Assembly: GCF_017348835.2 (NCBI RefSeq)
Contig: NZ_CP071375.1
Length of the DNA: 64,000 nt
Reading direction: 5' to 3' (one strand)
From: Escherichia coli
Lineage (GTDB): Bacteria > Pseudomonadota > Gammaproteobacteria > Enterobacterales > Enterobacteriaceae
Positions 7,868 to 59,007 of the stretch are shown piece by piece. The notes beneath the pieces are model-generated. The model saw only the letters and a program-made list of their open reading frames with translations, did no database searches and was not told the DNA's origin. The position numbers were made by a program, and so were the translations under genes. Each line of letters starts with the position of its first letter. Positions within the stretch are counted from its first letter, which is position 1.

Positions 7868-9282
7868 CTACCCATCTGGTCTGGTTTCGCCAGGATTTAC
7901 GTCTGCATGATAATCTCGCGCTGGCTGCCGCCTGCCGCAATTCGTCTGCACGCGTGCTGGCGTTGTATATCGCTACACCACGCCAGTGGGCGGCGCATAA
8001 TATGTCGCCGCGTCAGGCTGAACTTATCAATGCTCAACTGAACGGGCTACAAATCGCGCTGGCGGAAAAAGGCATTCCTTTATTGTTCCGTGAAGTGGAT
8101 GACTTTGCCGCCAGCGTCGAAATAGTTAAACAGGTGTGCGCGGAAAACAGCGTTACTCATCTTTTTTATAACTATCAGTATGAGGTGAATGAGCGGGCGC
8201 GGGATGTGCAGGTTGAGAGAACGCTGCGTAACGTGGTGTGTGAAGGATTTGATGACAGCGTGATCCTGCCGCCTGGCGCGGTGATGACCGGCAATCATGA
8301 GATGTACAAAGTCTTTACGCCTTTTCAAAATGCCTGGCTGAAACGGCTGCGGGAAGGGATGCCGGAGTGCGTCGCTGCACCAAAAGTTCGTAGTAGCGGA
8401 TCGATAAAGCCCGCGCCATCAATTACGCTGAATTATCCTCGTCAGTCTTTCGATACTGCGCATTTTCCGATGGAAGAAAAAGCGGCGATTGCGCAATTAC
8501 GCCAGTTTTGCCAGAACGGTGCCGGAGAATATGAGCAACAACGAGATTTTCCGGCAGTTGAAGGCACCAGCCGTTTGTCCGCCAGCCTGGCAACGGGCGG
8601 GTTATCACCTCGCCAGTGTTTGCATCGCCTGTTGGCGGAACAGCCGCAGGCGCTGGACGGTGGGGCCGGTAGTGTCTGGCTTAGTGAGCTGATCTGGCGC
8701 GAGTTCTACCGTCATCTGATGACGTATTACCCCTCGTTGTGTAAACATCGTCCATTTATTGCCTGGACGGATCGTGTGCAGTGGCAAAGCAATCCCGCCC
8801 ATTTAAAGGCCTGGCAGAAAGGCAAAACGGGATACCCGATTGTTGATGCCGCTATGCGTCAGCTTAACAGCACTGGCTGGATGCATAACCGGCTACGGAT
8901 GATTACAGCCAGTTTTCTGGTGAAAGATTTGTTGATCGACTGGCGCGAAGGCGAGCGATATTTCATGTCGCAGCTGATTGATGGTGATTTGGCAGCCAAT
9001 AACGGTGGCTGGCAGTGGGCGGCTTCTACGGGTACTGATGCAGCGCCGTATTTTCGTATTTTCAACCCGACAACCCAGGGCGAGAAATTTGACCGCGAAG
9101 GCGAGTTTATCCGCCAGTGGCTACCGGAACTACGCAATGTACCGGGGAAATCGGTGCATGAGCCGTGGAAGTGGGCGCAGAAAGCAGGTGTGAAGCTGGA
9201 TTATCCGCAACCGATAGTCGAGCACAAAGAGGCGAGAGTACAAACGTTGGCAGCGTATGAGGCGGCGCGGAAGGGGAAATAA
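7864..9282 (+). CDS. phr: Deoxyribodipyrimidine photolyase
   Basis: 472 aa MTTHLVWFRQDLRLHDNLALAAAC... Carries the photolyase/FAD-binding C-terminal signature WMHNRLRMITASFLVKDL. Confidence 0.95.
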   Translation: MTTHLVWFRQDLRLHDNLALAAACRNSSARVLALYIATPRQWAAHNMSPRQAELINAQLNGLQIALAEKGIPLLFREVDDFAASVEIVKQVCAENSVTHLFYNYQYEVNERARDVQVERTLRNVVCEGFDDSVILPPGAVMTGNHEMYKVFTPFQNAWLKRLREGMPECVAAPKVRSSGSIKPAPSITLNYPRQSFDTAHFPMEEKAAIAQLRQFCQNGAGEYEQQRDFPAVEGTSRLSASLATGGLSPRQCLHRLLAEQPQALDGGAGSVWLSELIWREFYRHLMTYYPSLCKHRPFIAWTDRVQWQSNPAHLKAWQKGKTGYPIVDAAMRQLNSTGWMHNRLRMITASFLVKDLLIDWREGERYFMSQLIDGDLAANNGGWQWAASTGTDAAPYFRIFNPTTQGEKFDREGEFIRQWLPELRNVPGKSVHEPWKWAQKAGVKLDYPQPIVEHKEARVQTLAAYEAARKGK

Positions 9283-34072: not shown

Positions 34073-34978
34073 ATGCGAGGGAAAATACCTAAAACGGAAC
34101 TGCTGGTGACTTTTGAGGTCGTCGCACGTCATGAAAGTTATACCAGAGCGGCAGAGGAGTTAGCGTTAACCCAAAGTGCAGTATTCAGACAAGTAAGTGC
34201 GCTGGAGGAATTTTTACGTACTCCGTTATTTTCACACTCTAAAAAACGTATTTTTCTTAATGATGCAGGGAAGTATTACCTGGGGATAGTAAAAGAAACA
34301 TTAAATAAGCTGGAACGCGATACCAATACCATTATGACCTGGCAGCCTACGGTTCAGGTTATTGAACTTGCCGTTAATCCTACTTTTAGTACCCACTGGT
34401 TAATCCCAAATTTACATGAATTCACAAAGTTACATCCCGATATTATTGTTAATATTCATTCTTTAGCTAATAACGGCGATTTTCTTAATCGGGAGTACGA
34501 TGCTGTCATTATGCGCGAAAATTTTTGCGCGCCCTGGGCGGAAGTAGAATATCTCTTTGATGAGGAGATTTTGCCGGTATGCAGCGGCAGTTTGCTTGCA
34601 ATGTCCGATCAAAAACTGTCAGTGGCAGAACTGCTTACTGAGTTACCGCTTCTGCATCAAAGCACCCGTATTACTGGCTGGGAAGAGTGGTTTGCTTTAT
34701 CTGGCGTTAGCAGTCCGCTGGTCAATAACGGACCACGTTTCGATTTGCTATCAATGCTGATTGCCGCCGTGCGCTCTAATCTCGGCGTGGCGCTGTTACC
34801 ACGTTTCGCTATTCAACATGATTTGGATAGTGGCGATATGGTGATCCCCTGTGATGTGCCTATTCGTACCGGTAATCGTTTTATTATGACGTGGCAGGAA
34901 GAGAAGTCTGACTCACCGCACTTGCAGCAATTTCGTGAATGGTTGCTGGTGAAATCGGTCGTACCGCAGGAGATGTAA
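34073..34978 (+). CDS. LysR-family transcriptional regulator (island-encoded)
   Basis: Start at MRGKIPKTELLVTFEVVARHESYTRAAEELALTQSAVFRQVSALEEFL (HTH) with AAGGGA RBS. ~301 aa. The tracked ORF begins 30 nt earlier at 34043. Confidence 0.85.
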   Translation: MRGKIPKTELLVTFEVVARHESYTRAAEELALTQSAVFRQVSALEEFLRTPLFSHSKKRIFLNDAGKYYLGIVKETLNKLERDTNTIMTWQPTVQVIELAVNPTFSTHWLIPNLHEFTKLHPDIIVNIHSLANNGDFLNREYDAVIMRENFCAPWAEVEYLFDEEILPVCSGSLLAMSDQKLSVAELLTELPLLHQSTRITGWEEWFALSGVSSPLVNNGPRFDLLSMLIAAVRSNLGVALLPRFAIQHDLDSGDMVIPCDVPIRTGNRFIMTWQEEKSDSPHLQQFREWLLVKSVVPQEM

Positions 34979-34983
34979 AACCT

Positions 34984-35010
34984 GCGCCTGGCGGGATGCC
35001 AGGCGCAGTT
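34984..35010. terminator. Bidirectional hairpin between the convergent LysR gene and the btuR-like gene
   Basis: CCTGCGCCTGGCGGGATGCCAGGCGCAGG: a perfect 12-bp stem. Confidence 0.6.
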
Positions 35011-35011
35011 A

Positions 35012-35614
35012 TTACCAGTCGATACCCGGCTGGGCCTGAATGCCGTTATCAAAAGCATGTTTGACGGGGCGGATTTCGCTTACCGTATCCGCCATTTTTA
35101 ATATCTGACTGTGGCAACCGCGTCCGGTGACAATGACACTTTGTTGTGCCGGGCGGTTTTGCAGAGAAGCGATCACTTCTTCGGTATCCAAATAATGGTA
35201 AGCCAGCATATAGGTCAGCTCATCAAGCACCACTAAGTCGTAACGCTTGTCAGCCAGCATCCGTTTGCTTTCCGACCAGACCTCTTTCGCCGCGTCGATA
35301 TCCGCTTGCCGGTTCTGTGTCTCCCAGGTAAAACCAGTTCCCATAATATGAAACTCAACCCCCAGCGGCTGGAGAAGGTTGTATTCGCCGTTGTCCCATT
35401 GCCCCTTGATGTACTGCGCAACCCCCACCGTTTTGCCATGACCCACCGCGCGCGTCACAGTACCAAACGCGGCAGTGGATTTCCCTTTGCCGTTGCCGGT
35501 GAAAACAATCAAGATCCCTTTTTTCTCTATCGCCGCTGCGACGCGCGTATCGACCTGTTCCTTCAATTTCTGTTGGCGCTGCACATGCCGTTCAGTTGAA
35601 ATTCGCGCTTCCAT
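35012..35614 (-). CDS. ATP:cob(I)alamin adenosyltransferase, BtuR/CobA-family paralog
   Basis: 200 aa ...GILIVFTGNGKGKSTAAFGTVTRAVGHGKTVGVAQYIKGQWDNGE...DLVVLDELTYM... Near-collinear with E. coli BtuR (P-loop GNGKGK[ST]T, LDE motif). Lies 10 bp downstream of fumD. Confidence 0.85.
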   Translation of the reverse strand: MEARISTERHVQRQQKLKEQVDTRVAAAIEKKGILIVFTGNGKGKSTAAFGTVTRAVGHGKTVGVAQYIKGQWDNGEYNLLQPLGVEFHIMGTGFTWETQNRQADIDAAKEVWSESKRMLADKRYDLVVLDELTYMLAYHYLDTEEVIASLQNRPAQQSVIVTGRGCHSQILKMADTVSEIRPVKHAFDNGIQAQPGIDW

Positions 35615-35623
35615 TCATTTTCC

Positions 35624-37276
35624 TTAATGTCCCGCAGGGCAACTGGCGCAGCGATGTTGCTGCTCAAACTGACTAAAGAAATTATTGCCTTTATCATCTA
35701 CCAGGATGAATGCGGGCAGATTTTCCACTTCCATCATCCACACCGCTTCCATACCCAGCTCCGGATATTCCAGGCAACGCAGACTTTTGACATATTCTTG
35801 CGCCAGTAACGCAGCTGCACCGCCAATACTTCCCAGATTGAAGCCGCCATGTTTGTGACAGGCATCGGTGACCTGCTGGCTGCGGTTACCTTTCGATAAC
35901 ATCACCAGACTGCCGCCAGCCGCCTGGAAGGTATCGATATAACGGTCCATTCGACCGCCCGTGGTTGGACCCAGTGAACCGCAGGCCATGTTCTCCGGTG
36001 TTTTCGCCGGGCCAGCGTAATAGACAATATGATGCTTCAGGTACTCCGGCATCGATTCGCCGCTATCCAGCCGCGCTTTTATTTTGGCGTGGGCGATATC
36101 GCGCGCCACTACGATGGGACCACTTAACGACACGCGGGTGCCTACCGGTAATCTGGCGAGATCCAGCATCACGTCACGCAACGGACGGTTTAGATCCAGT
36201 TGTACATGTTGCGCGTGATTTTCTTCCCGCAATGAGGCTGGAATATATTGCCCCGGATTGTGTTCGAGTTTTTCCAGCCAGATACCGTGTTTGTTAATTT
36301 TTGCTTTGATATTGCGATCGGCAGAACAGGAGAGCGCCATAGCTATCGGGCAAGAGCCACCGTGACGCGGCAGACGAATGACGCGAATATCATGAGCGAA
36401 ATATTTCCCCCCAAATTGTGCACCAATACCAAATTGCTGACTGGCCTCGAGCAACACTTTTTCCAGCTCAATATCACGGAATGCTTGTCCCTGCTCGTTT
36501 CCGCTGGTGGGCAAATTGTCGTAATATTTCGTTGAGGCCAGCTTGGCAACTTTTAAGGTTTGATCGGCTGAAAGCCCTCCGACGGCAAAGGCGATGTGGT
36601 AAGGCGGGCAGGCAGCGGTGCCCAGCGATTTCATTTTTTCGATTAAAAATGCGGTCAGTTTTTCTGGTTGCAATAAGGATTTGGTTTCCTGATAAAGCGC
36701 GGCTTTATTGGCAGAGCCGCCTCCTTTATTAACACAGAGGAAATGGTACTCATCACCAGCGACAGCGCTGATATCAATCTGCGCCGGGAGATTGGTTTGC
36801 GTATTGACTTCGGTATACATATCCAGCGGCGCATTTTGTGAAAAGCGCAGATTATTTTCCTGGAAAGTACTGTAAATGCCTTTACTTAAGGCTTCGGCGT
36901 CGTTACTTCCGGTCCATATCTGTTGCCCTTTACTGGCAACAATAGTTGCGGTGCCGGTATCCTGACAGTTGGGTAATACCCCTTTTGCTGAGACTTCAGC
37001 ATTACGTAATAACTGCAACGCAACGTATTTATCATTACTACTGGCCTGCTGATCGTTAAGAATGCTGGCGACCTGTTGCAAATGAGTGGAACGTAAGAAA
37101 AAAGAGGCTTCATAAAATGCCTGCCGGGCAAGCAGCGTTAATGCTTCAGGAGTGATTTTTATCACTTCTTCGCCGTCTAATTCCGTTACTGTAATATGTT
37201 GATCGCTAATTAATGTATATTCTGTACCGTCTTTATTTTGTAGAAACGGTTCTTGCCAGATAAATGGTTTGGACAT
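35624..37276 (-). CDS. fumD: Class I (Fe-S) fumarate hydratase family enzyme with fused alpha/beta domains; mesaconase/fumarase FumD-type
   Basis: 550 aa. The C-terminal end of the ORF carries the C...CASCPAGH cysteine-cluster region and [13 protein letters not shown], typical of the FumA/FumB/L-tartrate dehydratase family. Sits in a methylaspartate-pathway gene cluster, as described for E. coli O157:H7 FumD. Confidence 0.8.
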
Positions 37277-37383
37277 ATTTCACTTTTCACCTTAAACGTT
37301 AGTGTTACTTAATTGCCGTCTAACTTCATGATCCGGCTTATAAAAATGCGTAGTCATTGGCTTCAGATTGCTTAAGAGCCCCC

Positions 37384-38664
37384 TCAGGGCAGAGCAACGT
37401 TCGATTCATTGGTTTTTAATGCTTTACCCCGACAGCCCTCGCCGAAATGTTCGCCTTCCCACCGACTCACCATCGCAGCGCCCATTGCGTTACTCATGAC
37501 GTTTGTCGCGGAACGCCCCATATCAAGGAACGGATCAACGCCCATCAGCAAGATCAGCCCCGCTTCCGGAATATTGAACTGGTTGAGCGTGGCGGCGATA
37601 ACCACCATTGAGGCGCGTGGTACGCCAGCCATTCCTTTCGAGGTCAACATCAGGATCAACAGCATGGTGATTTGCTCACCGATGGATAAATGGATATTGC
37701 AGGCCTGGGCGATGAAAACTGTGGCGAAGGAGCAGTAGGCCATTGATCCAACGAGATTAAATGAGTAGCCAATGGGTAAGACAAAGCTGGCAATTTTGGG
37801 GGAAACGCCAAATTGCTCCAGTTTTTCAAGCGTTCCCGGAAAAGCCGCTTCAGAACTGGATGTGGTAAATGCCAACAGGGCGGGTTCCGAAAGGGCGCGG
37901 GTCAGGCGTCTGATGCAGGGGCCGACATAAACGATGGCCAGACCGATAAGCAGCACCCAAAGTAATAACATGGTGAAATAAAATTCACCCATAAAGATCC
38001 CGGCGCTCACCATAACGGCCAGTCCTCGTTCAGCAATCAATGCTGAAATAGCGGCGAATACGGTCAGGGGAGCGAAGAGCATGACGTAGCCAGTGAGCTT
38101 TAACATGGCATGTGCCAGCGAATCTAAGGCGTGAACGATGGCGCTGCCTTTCTCGCCAATCGCCGTCAGGCTACAGCCGAGGAAAATTGAGAACACCACG
38201 ATTTGCAAAATTTCATTGTGCGCCATGGCATCGACAATGCTGGTGGGGAAAGCATGCGAAATAAATACTTTTAGCGTAAAGGGTTCTGCCGCGACCACTC
38301 CGGTGGTTTCGGCACCGTGTGCAACAAAATTAATTCCTGTACCTGGCATGAAGAAATTTACCGTTATCAAGCCTAAGGCAATTGACAGCAATGAGGCGCA
38401 AATAAATAAAAAGAGTGTTTTAGAAAAAATACGACCAAGGGCTTTAGCATCGCCCATTTTAGCAATACCTACCACCAGGGTAGAAACCACTAACGGAGCG
38501 ATAATCATTTTTATCAGTCGTAAGAAAATCGTCGTGAATATCGATATTTCTTGCGCATAGAGTTTTGCTGTTTCCGGTGAAGCAGTGTTATTGAGCACTA
38601 CGCCGATAATCATTCCAAGTACCAGCGCCAAAAGAATCATCGTGGTTAAACTTATTTTCTTCAT
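37384..38664 (-). CDS. Dicarboxylate/amino acid:cation symporter (DAACS; GltP/DctA family)
   Basis: Start at MKKISLTTMILLALVLGMIIGVV (GGAGG RBS). ~426 aa polytopic protein with DAACS-like hydrophobic repeats. Substrate (glutamate, mesaconate or a C4-dicarboxylate) not decidable. Confidence 0.8.
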   Translation of the reverse strand: MKKISLTTMILLALVLGMIIGVVLNNTASPETAKLYAQEISIFTTIFLRLIKMIIAPLVVSTLVVGIAKMGDAKALGRIFSKTLFLFICASLLSIALGLITVNFFMPGTGINFVAHGAETTGVVAAEPFTLKVFISHAFPTSIVDAMAHNEILQIVVFSIFLGCSLTAIGEKGSAIVHALDSLAHAMLKLTGYVMLFAPLTVFAAISALIAERGLAVMVSAGIFMGEFYFTMLLLWVLLIGLAIVYVGPCIRRLTRALSEPALLAFTTSSSEAAFPGTLEKLEQFGVSPKIASFVLPIGYSFNLVGSMAYCSFATVFIAQACNIHLSIGEQITMLLILMLTSKGMAGVPRASMVVIAATLNQFNIPEAGLILLMGVDPFLDMGRSATNVMSNAMGAAMVSRWEGEHFGEGCRGKALKTNESNVALP

Positions 38665-38710
38665 TTTTTCCTCCATCAGGTGCACGGCGATAAATCAGAA
38701 TCAGGAGAAG

Positions 38711-38742
38711 TAGATGCCTGAATAGAGATTCAGGCATCTACC
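38711..38742. other. Perfect 14-bp-stem hairpin in the intergenic region between the DUF4387-like gene and the transporter gene
   Basis: GTAGATGCCTGAATAGAGATTCAGGCATCTAC. No flanking T-run on either strand. Confidence 0.5.
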
Positions 38743-56007: not shown

Positions 56008-56799
56008 ATGAGCAGTAACTTCAGACATCAACTATTGAGTCTGTCGTTACTGGTTGGTATAGCGGCCCCCTGGGCCGCTTTTGCTCAGGCACCAATCAGT
56101 AGTGTCGGCTCAGGCTCGGTCGAAGACCGCGTCACTCAACTTGAGCGTATTTCTAATGCTCACAGCCAGCTTTTAACCCAACTCCAGCAACAACTCTCTG
56201 ATAATCAATCCGATATTGATTCCCTGCGTGGTCAGATTCAGGAAAATCAGTATCAACTGAATCAGGTCGTGGAGCGGCAAAAGCAGATCCTGTTGCAGAT
56301 CGACAGCCTCAGCAACGGTGGTGCAGCGGCGCAATCAACCAGCGGTGATCAAAGCGGTGCGGCGGCATCAACGACGCCGACAGCTGATGCTGGTACTGCG
56401 AATGCTGGCGCGCCGGTGAAAAGCGGTGATGCAAACACGGATTACAATGCAGCTATTGCGCTGGTGCAGGATAAATCCCGCCAGGATGACGCAATGGTGG
56501 CATTTCAGAATTTCATCAAAAATTACCCTGATTCAACTTACCTGCCAAACGCCAATTATTGGCTGGGTCAGTTAAACTACAACAAGGGTAAAAAAGATGA
56601 TGCGGCGTACTATTTTGCTTCGGTAGTGAAAAACTATCCGAAGTCACCAAAGGCTGCAGATGCGATGTTTAAAGTCGGCGTCATCATGCAGGACAAAGGT
56701 GACACCGCAAAAGCGAAAGCCGTATACCACCAGGTTATCAGTAAATACCCTGGTACTGATGGCGCTAAACAGGCACAAAAACGTCTGAACGCGATGTAA
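56008..56799 (+). CDS. cpoB: Cell division coordinator CpoB (YbgF; TPR)
   Basis: 263 aa MSSNFRHQLLSLSLLVGIAAPWAAFAQAPISSVGSG... Confidence 0.95.
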   Translation: MSSNFRHQLLSLSLLVGIAAPWAAFAQAPISSVGSGSVEDRVTQLERISNAHSQLLTQLQQQLSDNQSDIDSLRGQIQENQYQLNQVVERQKQILLQIDSLSNGGAAAQSTSGDQSGAAASTTPTADAGTANAGAPVKSGDANTDYNAAIALVQDKSRQDDAMVAFQNFIKNYPDSTYLPNANYWLGQLNYNKGKKDDAAYYFASVVKNYPKSPKAADAMFKVGVIMQDKGDTAKAKAVYHQVISKYPGTDGAKQAQKRLNAM

Positions 56800-56963
56800 T
56801 GCATAACACACGACCAGAAGTCGCATTATTTCTGGTCGTGTCGTGCGAATCATAAGCAGTTGAGTGATCTACATCGAAATTTTTGTTGCGCTCAAGTCTG
56901 AAATCAGTAATATATGCCGCCGTTGCCACGGGATATCAAACAAACCGAAAGCAACGAAAAAGT

Positions 56964-57039
56964 GGGTCGTTAGCTCAGTTGGTAGAGCAGTTGACTTTTA
57001 ATCAATTGGTCGCAGGTTCGAATCCTGCACGACCCACCA
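56964..57039 (+). tRNA. lysT: tRNA-Lys (UUU)
   Basis: GGGTCGTTAGCTCAGTTGGTAGAGCAGTTGACTTTTAATCAATTGGTCGCAGGTTCGAATCCTGCACGACCCACCA. Confidence 0.95.
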
Positions 57040-57074
57040 CTAACCTAGTTAGTTGTAGTATCCAGCGTAGTATC

Positions 57075-57150
57075 GGGTGATTAGCTCAGCTGGGAGAGCA
57101 CCTCCCTTACAAGGAGGGGGTCGGCGGTTCGATCCCGTCATCACCCACCA
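57075..57150 (+). tRNA. valT: tRNA-Val (UAC)
   Basis: GGGTGATTAGCTCAGCTGGGAGAGCACCTCCCTTACAAGGAGGGGGTCGGCGGTTCGATCCCGTCATCACCCACCA. Confidence 0.95.
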
Positions 57151-57152
57151 CC

Positions 57153-57228
57153 GGGTCGTTAGCTCAGTTGGTAGAGCAGTTGACTTTTAATCAATTGGTC
57201 GCAGGTTCGAATCCTGCACGACCCACCA
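57153..57228 (+). tRNA. lysW: tRNA-Lys (UUU)
   Basis: Identical to the lysT sequence. Confidence 0.95.
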
Positions 57229-57279
57229 TTAATTACGGTGGGTTCGGTGGAAGTAGTTTGTAGTATCCAACGCAGTATC

Positions 57280-57355
57280 GGGTGATTAGCTCAGTTGGTA
57301 GAGCAGTTGACTTTTAATCAATTGGTCGCAGGTTCGAATCCTGCACGACCCACCA
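57280..57355 (+). pseudogene. Chimeric Val/Lys tRNA gene: tRNA-Lys(UUU) body with Val-type positions 5-6 and Val-type upstream spacer. The acceptor stem has two mismatches.
   Basis: GGGTGATTAGCTCAGTTGGTAGAGCAG...ACGACCCACCA. The 5' strand GGGTGAU is Val-like, while the 3' strand ACGACCC is Lys-type, so 5:68 is G-G and 6:67 is A-C. The upstream spacer GTAGTATCCAACGCAGTATC mirrors the spacer in front of valT. Confidence 0.6.
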
Positions 57356-57435
57356 ATTTTAACATCAAACTCAGATGTTAAGCGTGAAGGATAACGTTGC
57401 GCCAGCAACGGCCCGTAGGGCGAGCGAAGCGAGTC

Positions 57436-57453
57436 ATCCTGCACGACCCACCA
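57436..57453 (+). pseudogene. Orphan 3' fragment of a tRNA-Lys gene (T-arm/acceptor 3' strand + CCA)
   Basis: ATCCTGCACGACCCACCA is preceded by unrelated sequence (GCGCCAGCAACGGCCCGTAGGGCGAGCGAAGCGAGTC) and a short hairpin TTAACATCAAACTCAGATGTTAA. Confidence 0.6.
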
Positions 57454-57501
57454 ATCTTAAAGATTGGCCCCGAGTAAAAATCTTTCAGGTAACACCCGTA
57501 T

Positions 57502-57577
57502 GGGTCGTTAGCTCAGTTGGTAGAGCAGTTGACTTTTAATCAATTGGTCGCAGGTTCGAATCCTGCACGACCCACCA
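57502..57577 (+). tRNA. lysZ: tRNA-Lys (UUU)
   Basis: Identical to the lysT sequence. Confidence 0.9.
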
Positions 57578-57610
57578 TCCTGAATGATTAAAGCAGCATA
57601 ATCCCGCAAG

Positions 57611-57686
57611 GGGTCGTTAGCTCAGTTGGTAGAGCAGTTGACTTTTAATCAATTGGTCGCAGGTTCGAATCCTGCACGACCCACCA
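57611..57686 (+). tRNA. lysQ: tRNA-Lys (UUU)
   Basis: Identical to the lysT sequence. Followed by terminator GAAAGCGCCCTAAAGGCGCTTTTTTGC (57692-57718). Confidence 0.9.
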
Positions 57687-57873
57687 ATGTAAGAAAGCGC
57701 CCTAAAGGCGCTTTTTTGCTATTCAGGCATCCCTCAATTTAACTTTGTAAACCTGATGACATAGTCAGAGCTTACTGTGCAAGCAACTCTATGTCGGTGG
57801 AATTAGGCGTAAAATGACGCATCCTGCACATTAGGCGTAATTCGAGTGACTTTTCCCCACCATTCGACTATCT

Positions 57874-57891
57874 TGTTTAGCATATAAAACA
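57874..57891 (+). promoter_or_regulatory. NadR (NAD box) operator in the nadA-pnuC promoter
   Basis: TGTTTAGCATATAAAACA approximates TGTTTA-N6-TAAACA, ~70 bp upstream of the nadA start. Confidence 0.55.
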
Positions 57892-57963
57892 AATTACACC
57901 GATAACAGCGAATATGACGCTTATGTCGGTTTTAACGTTAAGCCTGTAAAACGAGATGGTAAG

Positions 57964-59007
57964 ATGAGCGTGATGTTTGATCCAGACACGGCGATTTATC
58001 CTTTCCCCCCGAAGCCGACGCCGTTAAGCATTGATGAAAAAGCGTATTACCGCGAGAAGATAAAACGTCTGCTAAAAGAACGTAATGCGGTGATGGTTGC
58101 CCATTACTATACCGATCCCGAAATTCAACAACTGGCAGAAGAAACCGGTGGCTGTATTTCTGATTCTCTGGAAATGGCGCGTTTCGGTGCAAAGCATCCC
58201 GCTTCTACGTTGTTAGTCGCTGGGGTGAGATTTATGGGAGAAACCGCCAAAATTCTCAGTCCGGAAAAAACAATTCTGATGCCGACACTTCAGGCTGAAT
58301 GTTCACTGGATCTCGGCTGCCCTGTTGAAGAATTTAACGCATTTTGCGATGCCCATCCCGATCATACTGTCGTCGTCTACGCCAACACTTCTGCTGCGGT
58401 AAAAGCGCGGGCAGATTGGGTGGTAACTTCAAGCATTGCCGTCGAACTTATTGATCATCTGGATAGTTTGGGTGAAAAAATCATCTGGGCACCCGACAAA
58501 CATCTGGGGCGTTACGTGCAAAAAAAGACGGGCGCAGACATTTTATGCTGGCAGGGTGCCTGCATTGTGCATGATGAGTTTAAGACTCAGGCGTTAACCC
58601 GCTTGCAAGAAGAATATCCGGATGCTGCCATACTGGTGCATCCAGAATCACCACAAGCTATTGTCGATATGGCGGATGCGGTCGGTTCCACCAGTCAACT
58701 GATCGCTGCTGCAAAAGCATTGCCTCATCAGAGGCTTATTGTGGCAACCGATCGGGGTATTTTCTACAAAATGCAGCAGGCGGTGCCAGATAAAGAGTTA
58801 CTGGAAGCACCAACCGCAGGTGAGGGCGCAACCTGTCGCAGCTGCGCGCATTGTCCGTGGATGGCCATGAATGGCCTTCAGGCCATCGCAGAGGCATTAG
58901 AACAGGAAGGAAGCAATCACGAGGTTCATGTTGATGAAAGGCTGCGAGAGAGGGCGCTGGTGCCGCTCAATCGTATGCTGGATTTTGCGGCTACACTACG
59001 TGGATAA
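57964..59007 (+). CDS. nadA: Quinolinate synthase A
   Basis: 347 aa [49 protein letters not shown]. Confidence 0.97.

Follow-up and report, generated by a model that had tools for sequence, protein, structure and literature searches.

The window analyzed here is a 64,000-nt stretch of an Escherichia coli genome, and the region of interest within it is the interval between cpoB (ybgF) and nadA, in which ARAGORN calls six tRNA genes; these genes and the other elements of the array lie on the + strand. The array begins with three intact genes: lysT, encoding tRNA-Lys(UUU), at 56964-57039 (ARAGORN; 79.2 bits on the Rfam tRNA model), valT, encoding tRNA-Val(UAC), at 57075-57150 (ARAGORN; 65.9 bits), and lysW, a second tRNA-Lys(UUU) gene at 57153-57228 that lies 2 nt 3' of valT (ARAGORN and Rfam). 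A spacer at 57229-57279 then leads into a gene at 57280-57355 that combines the 5' end of a tRNA-Val gene with the body of a tRNA-Lys gene and is designated here valZ'–'lysY. It is followed by a repeat unit of the RtT family at 57356-57453 and by two intact tRNA-Lys(UUU) genes, lysZ at 57502-57577 and lysQ at 57611-57686 (both ARAGORN and Rfam), so that four Lys genes and one Val gene of the operon remain intact. The order Lys, Val, Lys, hybrid, and two further intact tRNA-Lys genes, read from the letters in an earlier note on this DNA, is the one called by ARAGORN. A hairpin with a T-run after lysQ, at 57691-57717 (inverted repeat AAGAAAGCGCC/GGCGCTTTTTT), is the Rho-independent terminator of the operon; it was missed on the + strand by the terminator scan and recovered only as an inverted repeat, and it is homologous to the terminator of the K-12 operon, which is removed by RNase P (PMC4176162). 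A promoter scan of 56780-57980 found no promoter, and no integrase, foreign DNA, or coding sequence was found between cpoB and nadA.

Some other features of the window and of the corresponding loci may be recorded here. At 57220-57250, a 9-bp stem with one bulge can form between CGACCCACC, the 3' end of lysW, and the sequence GGTGGGTTCG a few bases downstream in the spacer; it was seen by eye and missed by the repeat search, and the same motif is present in K-12, after the RtT unit. A sub-threshold match to the Rfam YrlA (Y RNA-like) family at 57522-57662 (44 bits, compared with a gathering score of 69) spans lysZ and lysQ and is almost certainly an artefact of the tRNA-likeness of two adjacent tRNA genes. 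The Rfam CpoB_ybgF thermometer (RF02782) is matched with 142 bits at the pal–cpoB junction of both K-12 (positions 250-388 of the extracted locus, L001) and E. coli PE164 (150-288 of L003), extending from the end of pal into the start of cpoB. Farther away, an island between sucD and cydA, at about 34073-47062, encodes, by annotation transferred from PE164, a methylaspartate mutase (glmS/glmL/glmE), methylaspartate ammonia-lyase, an AtuA-family protein, a DUF4387 protein, a dicarboxylate symporter, a class I fumarase, cobO, and a LysR regulator; among the best matches, these genes carry names in O157:H7 and in a few others.

The hybrid gene starts with GGGTGAT, as the Val genes do, whereas the four other Lys genes start with GGGTCGT; Val and Lys genes can be distinguished at their 5' ends by positions 5 and 6 only. 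From position 7 to position 76 (70 nt), the hybrid is identical to tRNA-Lys, including the 3' acceptor strand ACGACCC and the anticodon UUU, and the 51-nt spacer upstream is a leader of the valZ type, the same as the spacer that precedes valZ in PE164 and in E. coli F2_81. The earlier description of a Val-type spacer and 5' end on a tRNA-Lys(UUU) body therefore holds, with the refinement that positions 5 and 6 are the diagnostic ones. The gene is thus composed of Val nucleotides 1-6 and Lys nucleotides 16-76, joined by the 9-nt sequence TTAGCTCAG at 57286-57294 (tRNA positions 7-15), which is common to both parents and anywhere within which the crossover point can be placed. Because the exact matches to the two parental genes extend over 57 nt and 70 nt, a chance origin of the hybrid is ruled out. 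Since the Val-type 5' bases face a Lys-type 3' acceptor strand, pairs 5:68 and 6:67 of the acceptor stem are broken, being replaced by G5•G68 and A6•C67; these are the mismatches previously noticed by inspection, and the Rfam tRNA model flags exactly these two pairs as non-standard, with a decrease in score from 79.2 to 68.0 bits.

The second unusual feature, an isolated 18-nt tRNA-Lys 3' end located exactly 80 nt past the hybrid (ATCCTGCACGACCCACCA, 57436-57453, an exact match), is indeed present as the earlier note described it, but its assignment there to the same rearrangement is not supported, because it is the 3' end of an RtT unit (RF00391) that occupies the same position in PE164, F2_81, and K-12. 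The unit at 57356-57453 scores 54.4 bits on the RF00391 model, for which the gathering score is 45, and the orthologous units in K-12 and PE164 give the same score of 54.4 bits. It lies downstream of a Lys-type gene, in the lysY–lysZ spacer, where it is a normal component of the operon, ends in the exact 18-nt tRNA 3' end with CCA, and, except for its first base, is identical to the unit between lysY and lysZ of K-12 (1984-2081 of L001). The unit folds into an outer stem, CGTGAAGGAT/ATCCTGCACG, around two small inner hairpins (z = -3.55); no covariation was available among the six RtT copies. The RtT RNA family was first described from repeats downstream of tyrT. As is usual in that family, the unit in the window directly follows a tRNA gene and uses the copy of the tRNA 3' end in its outer stem, but it carries a tRNA-Lys-type 3' end in place of a tRNA-Tyr-type one. 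We note that the Rfam alignment of RtT takes the 5' strand partly from the upstream tRNA, whereas the real 5' strand, CGTGAAGGAT, is inside the unit. One copy, after lysQ, is annotated by NCBI PGAP as "RtT sRNA", and stretches of this kind have been treated as long spacers cleavable by RNase E (PMC4176162).

The array was compared across seven alleles, with mismatches allowed. The order given in the earlier note for the seven tRNA genes of K-12, Lys-Val-Lys-Val-Lys-Lys-Lys, is correct, and with RtT units (r) included, the K-12 array reads K-r-V-K-r-V-K-r-K-r-K-r, that of PE164 K-V-K-V-K-r-K-K, and that of the window K-V-K-X-r-K-K, where X is the hybrid. K-12 thus contains five copies of the orphan 18-mer in the operon, with one RtT unit after each Lys gene and five RF00391 matches. 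The K-12 lysT operon resembles that of the window in its flanking genes, promoter-proximal region, gene order, tRNA sequences, and terminator, and the lysY–lysZ spacers are identical at 145 of 146 nt; four of the five RtT units are, however, absent from the window, including the unit that follows lysT in K-12 and the extra unit carried by the K-12 version of the lysW–valZ spacer. This compact haplotype is common to PE164 and F2_81, but the fusion of valZ and lysY by a 79-bp deletion is found in the window alone. Strains differ in which RtT units they carry, the differences falling exactly at the 18-nt repeat, and they differ as well in how many Lys genes they have; the tRNA array between cpoB and nadA is, on these alignments, modular, with tRNA-Lys genes and RtT units that come and go at 18-nt repeats. 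The orphan 3' end is the end of a standard RtT-type module, variable in copy number, that follows tRNA-Lys genes in this operon, and it is unrelated to the deletion. In the allele of UID2309220033, the array contains only six tRNA genes, and valZ (1531-1606 of L005) carries a C16→T substitution, a Lys-type D-loop base that lengthens the stretch shared by Val and Lys from 9 to 13 nt.

The origin of the hybrid can be traced by comparison with close relatives. The window is collinear over 64 kb with PE164, from which it differs by two single-nucleotide substitutions (at 8698, C/A in phrB, and at 45591, T/C, intergenic in the island between sucD and cydA) and one 79-bp deletion, with no other indel. 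When the whole cpoB–nadA intergenic region, 1.2 kb in length, was aligned with those of PE164 (from a pig in China) and F2_81 (from a pig in Australia), the sole difference was a 79-nt gap flanked by TTAGCTCAG. The 79 nt present in PE164 and F2_81 start within the D-loop of valZ, run through its CCA end and a CTC spacer, and include six bases from the 5' end of lysY; TTAGCTCAG is the longest common substring of valZ and lysY, and both edges of the gap lie inside it. The window allele is therefore exactly the undeleted allele minus one copy of the repeat and the intervening DNA. Both valZ and lysY are intact in PE164, F2_81, UID2309220033, K-12, WP5-S17-ESBL-10, and 2013C-3264, that is, in close relatives and in outgroups, and since the two genes are separate in K-12 and in the other resolved E. 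coli loci among those compared, the hybrid is the derived state. The deletion must be very recent because the intact allele is present in genomes only about two substitutions per 64 kb away.

These observations make it likely that a single recent deletion of 79 bp joined valZ to lysY, that the resulting hybrid gene is weak or non-functional, and that the orphan 3' end has no connection with the event; the earlier proposal of a rearrangement inside the seven-gene lysT operon, giving a Val/Lys hybrid with a defective acceptor stem, is to this extent supported. The deletion would have brought together the TTAGCTCAG copies of the neighboring genes valZ and lysY, 9-bp direct repeats 79 bp apart, probably by replication slippage or another short-homology process, a mechanistic step that we infer from the form of the junction. 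Lost with it were valZ from the D-loop on, the CUC spacer, and 6 nt at the start of lysY. The product would be a gene, transcribed as part of the operon, that has its leader and 5' acceptor strand from Val and its body from Lys. Slippage assisted by secondary structure is unsupported, the DNA fold of the deleted valZ–lysY interval being not significantly more stable than those of shuffled sequences (z = -1.5). Classical deletions between short homologies were reportedly described in lacI by Albertini et al. in 1982, with further work said to have come from Lovett and colleagues. As in such slipped-misalignment deletions, the window allele has lost one repeat copy and the sequence between the repeats, with endpoints that fall in the longest microhomology nearby and with <100 bp separating the repeats; nothing appears to set it apart from the classical cases.

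The functional consequences were assessed from the sequence and predicted structure of the hybrid. The gene is recognized as a tRNA, scoring 68.0 bits on RF00005 (gathering score 29), which is higher than the 65.9 bits of genuine Val genes, and ARAGORN calls it Lys(ttt). The identity elements of tRNA-Lys, U34-U35-U36 and A73, are present. Lysine identity resides in the anticodon and A73, and valine identity requires A35 and C36 (PMC9976931); because the hybrid keeps UUU and A73 and is without A35 and C36, no change of identity is expected, and the altered aminoacylation raised as a possibility in the earlier note is unlikely. The alternative offered there, that the gene is a pseudogene, fares better. 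The acceptor stem is not intact, with the two flagged mismatches and a weaker cloverleaf, whose energy is -18.4 kcal/mol, compared with -26.4 kcal/mol for the wild type, a difference of about 8 kcal/mol for the unmodified sequences, for which the probability of the acceptor pairs also falls from ∼1.0 in the wild type to ∼0.2 in the hybrid. In the minimum-energy fold of the hybrid, there is a register shift in which G2-G5 pair with C72-C75 and the CCA end is buried. Two adjacent mismatches would leave the acceptor stem with a 4-bp helix end and favor this register-shifted fold, in which CCA is sequestered. Most likely, the folding model suggests, the hybrid is poorly processed, unstable, or inactive, and it is best read as a probable pseudogene or weak gene, although modifications and tertiary contacts might still hold the molecule in an L-shape. 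In K-12, there are five identical Val1 genes and six identical Lys genes (PMC4176162); by these counts, and given the predicted defect, the strain is in effect short of one Val(UAC) gene out of five and one Lys gene out of six. Such a loss should be tolerated because both tRNA families are multi-copy; K-12 cannot do without the complete operon (PMC11480407), but four intact Lys genes and one Val gene remain in that of the window.

There is some chance, although not a large one, that the deletion is real but that the hybrid is still a working tRNA-Lys that is processed, lysylated, and used, possibly being retained because it trims the Val/Lys dosage. The retention of the UUU anticodon and A73 is in keeping with this, as are the intact D, anticodon, and T arms and the score of 68 bits on the tRNA model. 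A naturally occurring lysT with a single A6•C67 mismatch is also known from E. coli 2013C-3264 (NZ_CP027544.1, 1501-1576 of L010), in which a G6→A substitution (GGGTCATTAGC...) affects the first gene of the operon. It must be set against these points that two mismatches next to each other in an acceptor stem of 7 bp carry a penalty of about 8 kcal/mol, that the predicted ensemble is mostly without an acceptor helix, and that a private allele only about two substitutions old has left no time for selection. The remaining argument for function is that Enterobacteriaceae bacterium LSJC7 (AMFN01000003.1) has an identical 76-nt hybrid, apparently of independent origin, where another Val gene meets a Lys gene. 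Like that in the window, the LSJC7 gene is preceded by a Val-type spacer, but it belongs to a different species and a different operon, in which it ends a Val-Val-Val-Lys array next to ypeB/ligA, and its Val and Lys genes share 20 nt, compared with 9 nt for valZ and lysY. This longer identity makes a fusion likelier in LSJC7, but it likewise makes a mis-join likelier in the assembly of a draft scaffold, so that the reality of the LSJC7 hybrid is uncertain. Immediately upstream of that hybrid (212-287 of L008) is a gene with a Val(UAC)-type body and the anticodon TCC, which is called Gly by ARAGORN; it represents either an anticodon-shift mutation or an error of the draft assembly.

The extent to which the hybrid occurs elsewhere bears on a further alternative, a slightly less probable one still, in which the isolate has intact valZ and lysY genes and the gap was made by an assembler or polisher. 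The identical arrangement was sought in reference genomes and found in none of 5426 complete E. coli genomes: a 71-nt junction query gave no match among them at E <= 1e-20, and at a loose threshold the only matches of full coverage came from three genomes with the spacer haplotype of the window, where the query had matched valZ and lysY, two separate genes, in two pieces. The junction coverage reported by megablast is misleading in this respect because separate Val and Lys pieces are joined into one place; the ambiguity was settled by the strict E-value cut-off and by a 33-nt query that seeds only on a true hybrid. This query matched one genome of the 5426, in which the matching sequence is the G6→A point variant of lysT and not a hybrid. 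The junction pattern had no match in metagenome contigs, and when the upstream spacer was included, it had none in species-representative genomes; a shorter junction pattern gave one match among 185,579 species-representative genomes, which is the LSJC7 gene discussed above. As judged by these searches, the hybrid allele is private to the lineage of the window.

This uniqueness among the complete genomes is compatible with an error of assembly, as is the repeat-rich character of the array, which contains five identical 76-nt genes as well as 18-nt repeats, and a public "complete" genome, that of UM146, shows a clear collapse of the same locus. However, the window contains no ambiguous bases and no other indel relative to PE164 in 64 kb, and it resolves the truly identical repeats (four Lys genes and one RtT unit) in the way that PE164 does. 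The junction lies within only 9 nt of identity between genes that otherwise differ; since this overlap is shorter than any assembler k-mer, a mis-join would need reads that carry the junction, and a collapse would instead be expected between identical Lys copies. The UM146 collapse also looks different from the junction in the window. In UM146 (NC_017632.1, 504-705 of L009), the array is reduced to one tRNA-Lys and a "tRNA-OTHER", and cpoB is annotated as frameshifted; the "tRNA-OTHER" has N at every position that distinguishes Val from Lys, which identifies it as an assembly collapse. The circumstantial evidence thus favors a real deletion.

If the deletion is real, effects beyond the loss of two genes may also be considered. 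RNase P is reported to work along this polycistron stepwise from its 3' end, releasing the tRNAs one after another (PMC4176162), and, speculatively, because the enzyme works from the 3' end first, a poorly recognized hybrid in the middle of the operon could slow the release of the three tRNAs upstream. It is conceivable, but rather improbable, that the hybrid, if its mismatched acceptor stem is a poor substrate for RNase P, acts as a roadblock that lowers the output of lysT, valT, and lysW, or that it yields a lysylated tRNA with a Val-type 5' strand, and that Val→Lys fusion, in view of the LSJC7 hybrid, is a recurrent and tolerated route to altered dosage in enterobacteria.

Two other origins that had been suggested in the earlier note can be set aside, each having a negligible probability. 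Gene conversion, by which the 5' end of a Lys gene would have received a short copied tract of Val sequence without any DNA being lost, would suit the restriction of Val-type bases to positions 5 and 6, and the Lys-type T at position 16 of valZ in UID2309220033 hints at exchange between Val and Lys genes, but it is refuted by the alignment with the nearly identical sister genomes PE164 and F2_81, relative to which the window is exactly 79 nt shorter, has six tRNA genes and not seven, lacks the whole of valZ, and has the Val-type leader directly joined to the hybrid. The other proposal, an old integration or excision scar in which the tRNA-Lys 3' duplicate is the former att site of a mobile element, draws on the fact that integrases commonly duplicate tRNA 3' ends, and the 18-nt copy, a direct repeat of the tRNA 3' end downstream of the gene that includes CCA, has the appearance of such a duplication; unlike an att site, however, it is accompanied by no mobile element, there being no integrase or foreign DNA between cpoB and nadA, and it lies only 80 nt away, enclosing a structured and conserved unit that matches RtT, is found five times in K-12, once per Lys gene, and is present beside intact valZ and lysY genes in PE164 and F2_81, both of which are without the hybrid. 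A nearly identical copy of the spacer that bears the RtT unit is present at >=80% coverage in 75% of the complete E. coli genomes (4065 of 5426); the RtT match, the K-12 copies, and this prevalence effectively refute a scar, and the event that made the hybrid, with two substitutions per 64 kb separating the window from the intact allele of PE164, is very recent and not old.

The finding has little significance beyond this strain, but it provides a clean and datable example of a short-homology deletion that has created a hybrid tRNA gene, with the ancestral allele kept in near-identical genomes. It also warns against taking the orphan tRNA 3' ends of this operon for integration scars. To annotation pipelines the hybrid will look like a normal tRNA-Lys, so that the count of Lys genes is inflated by one and the loss of a Val gene goes unnoticed. 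For the biology of tRNA maturation, the isolate, if it can be obtained, would be a natural setting in which to see what RNase P and tRNA quality control make of a double acceptor mismatch in a polycistron.
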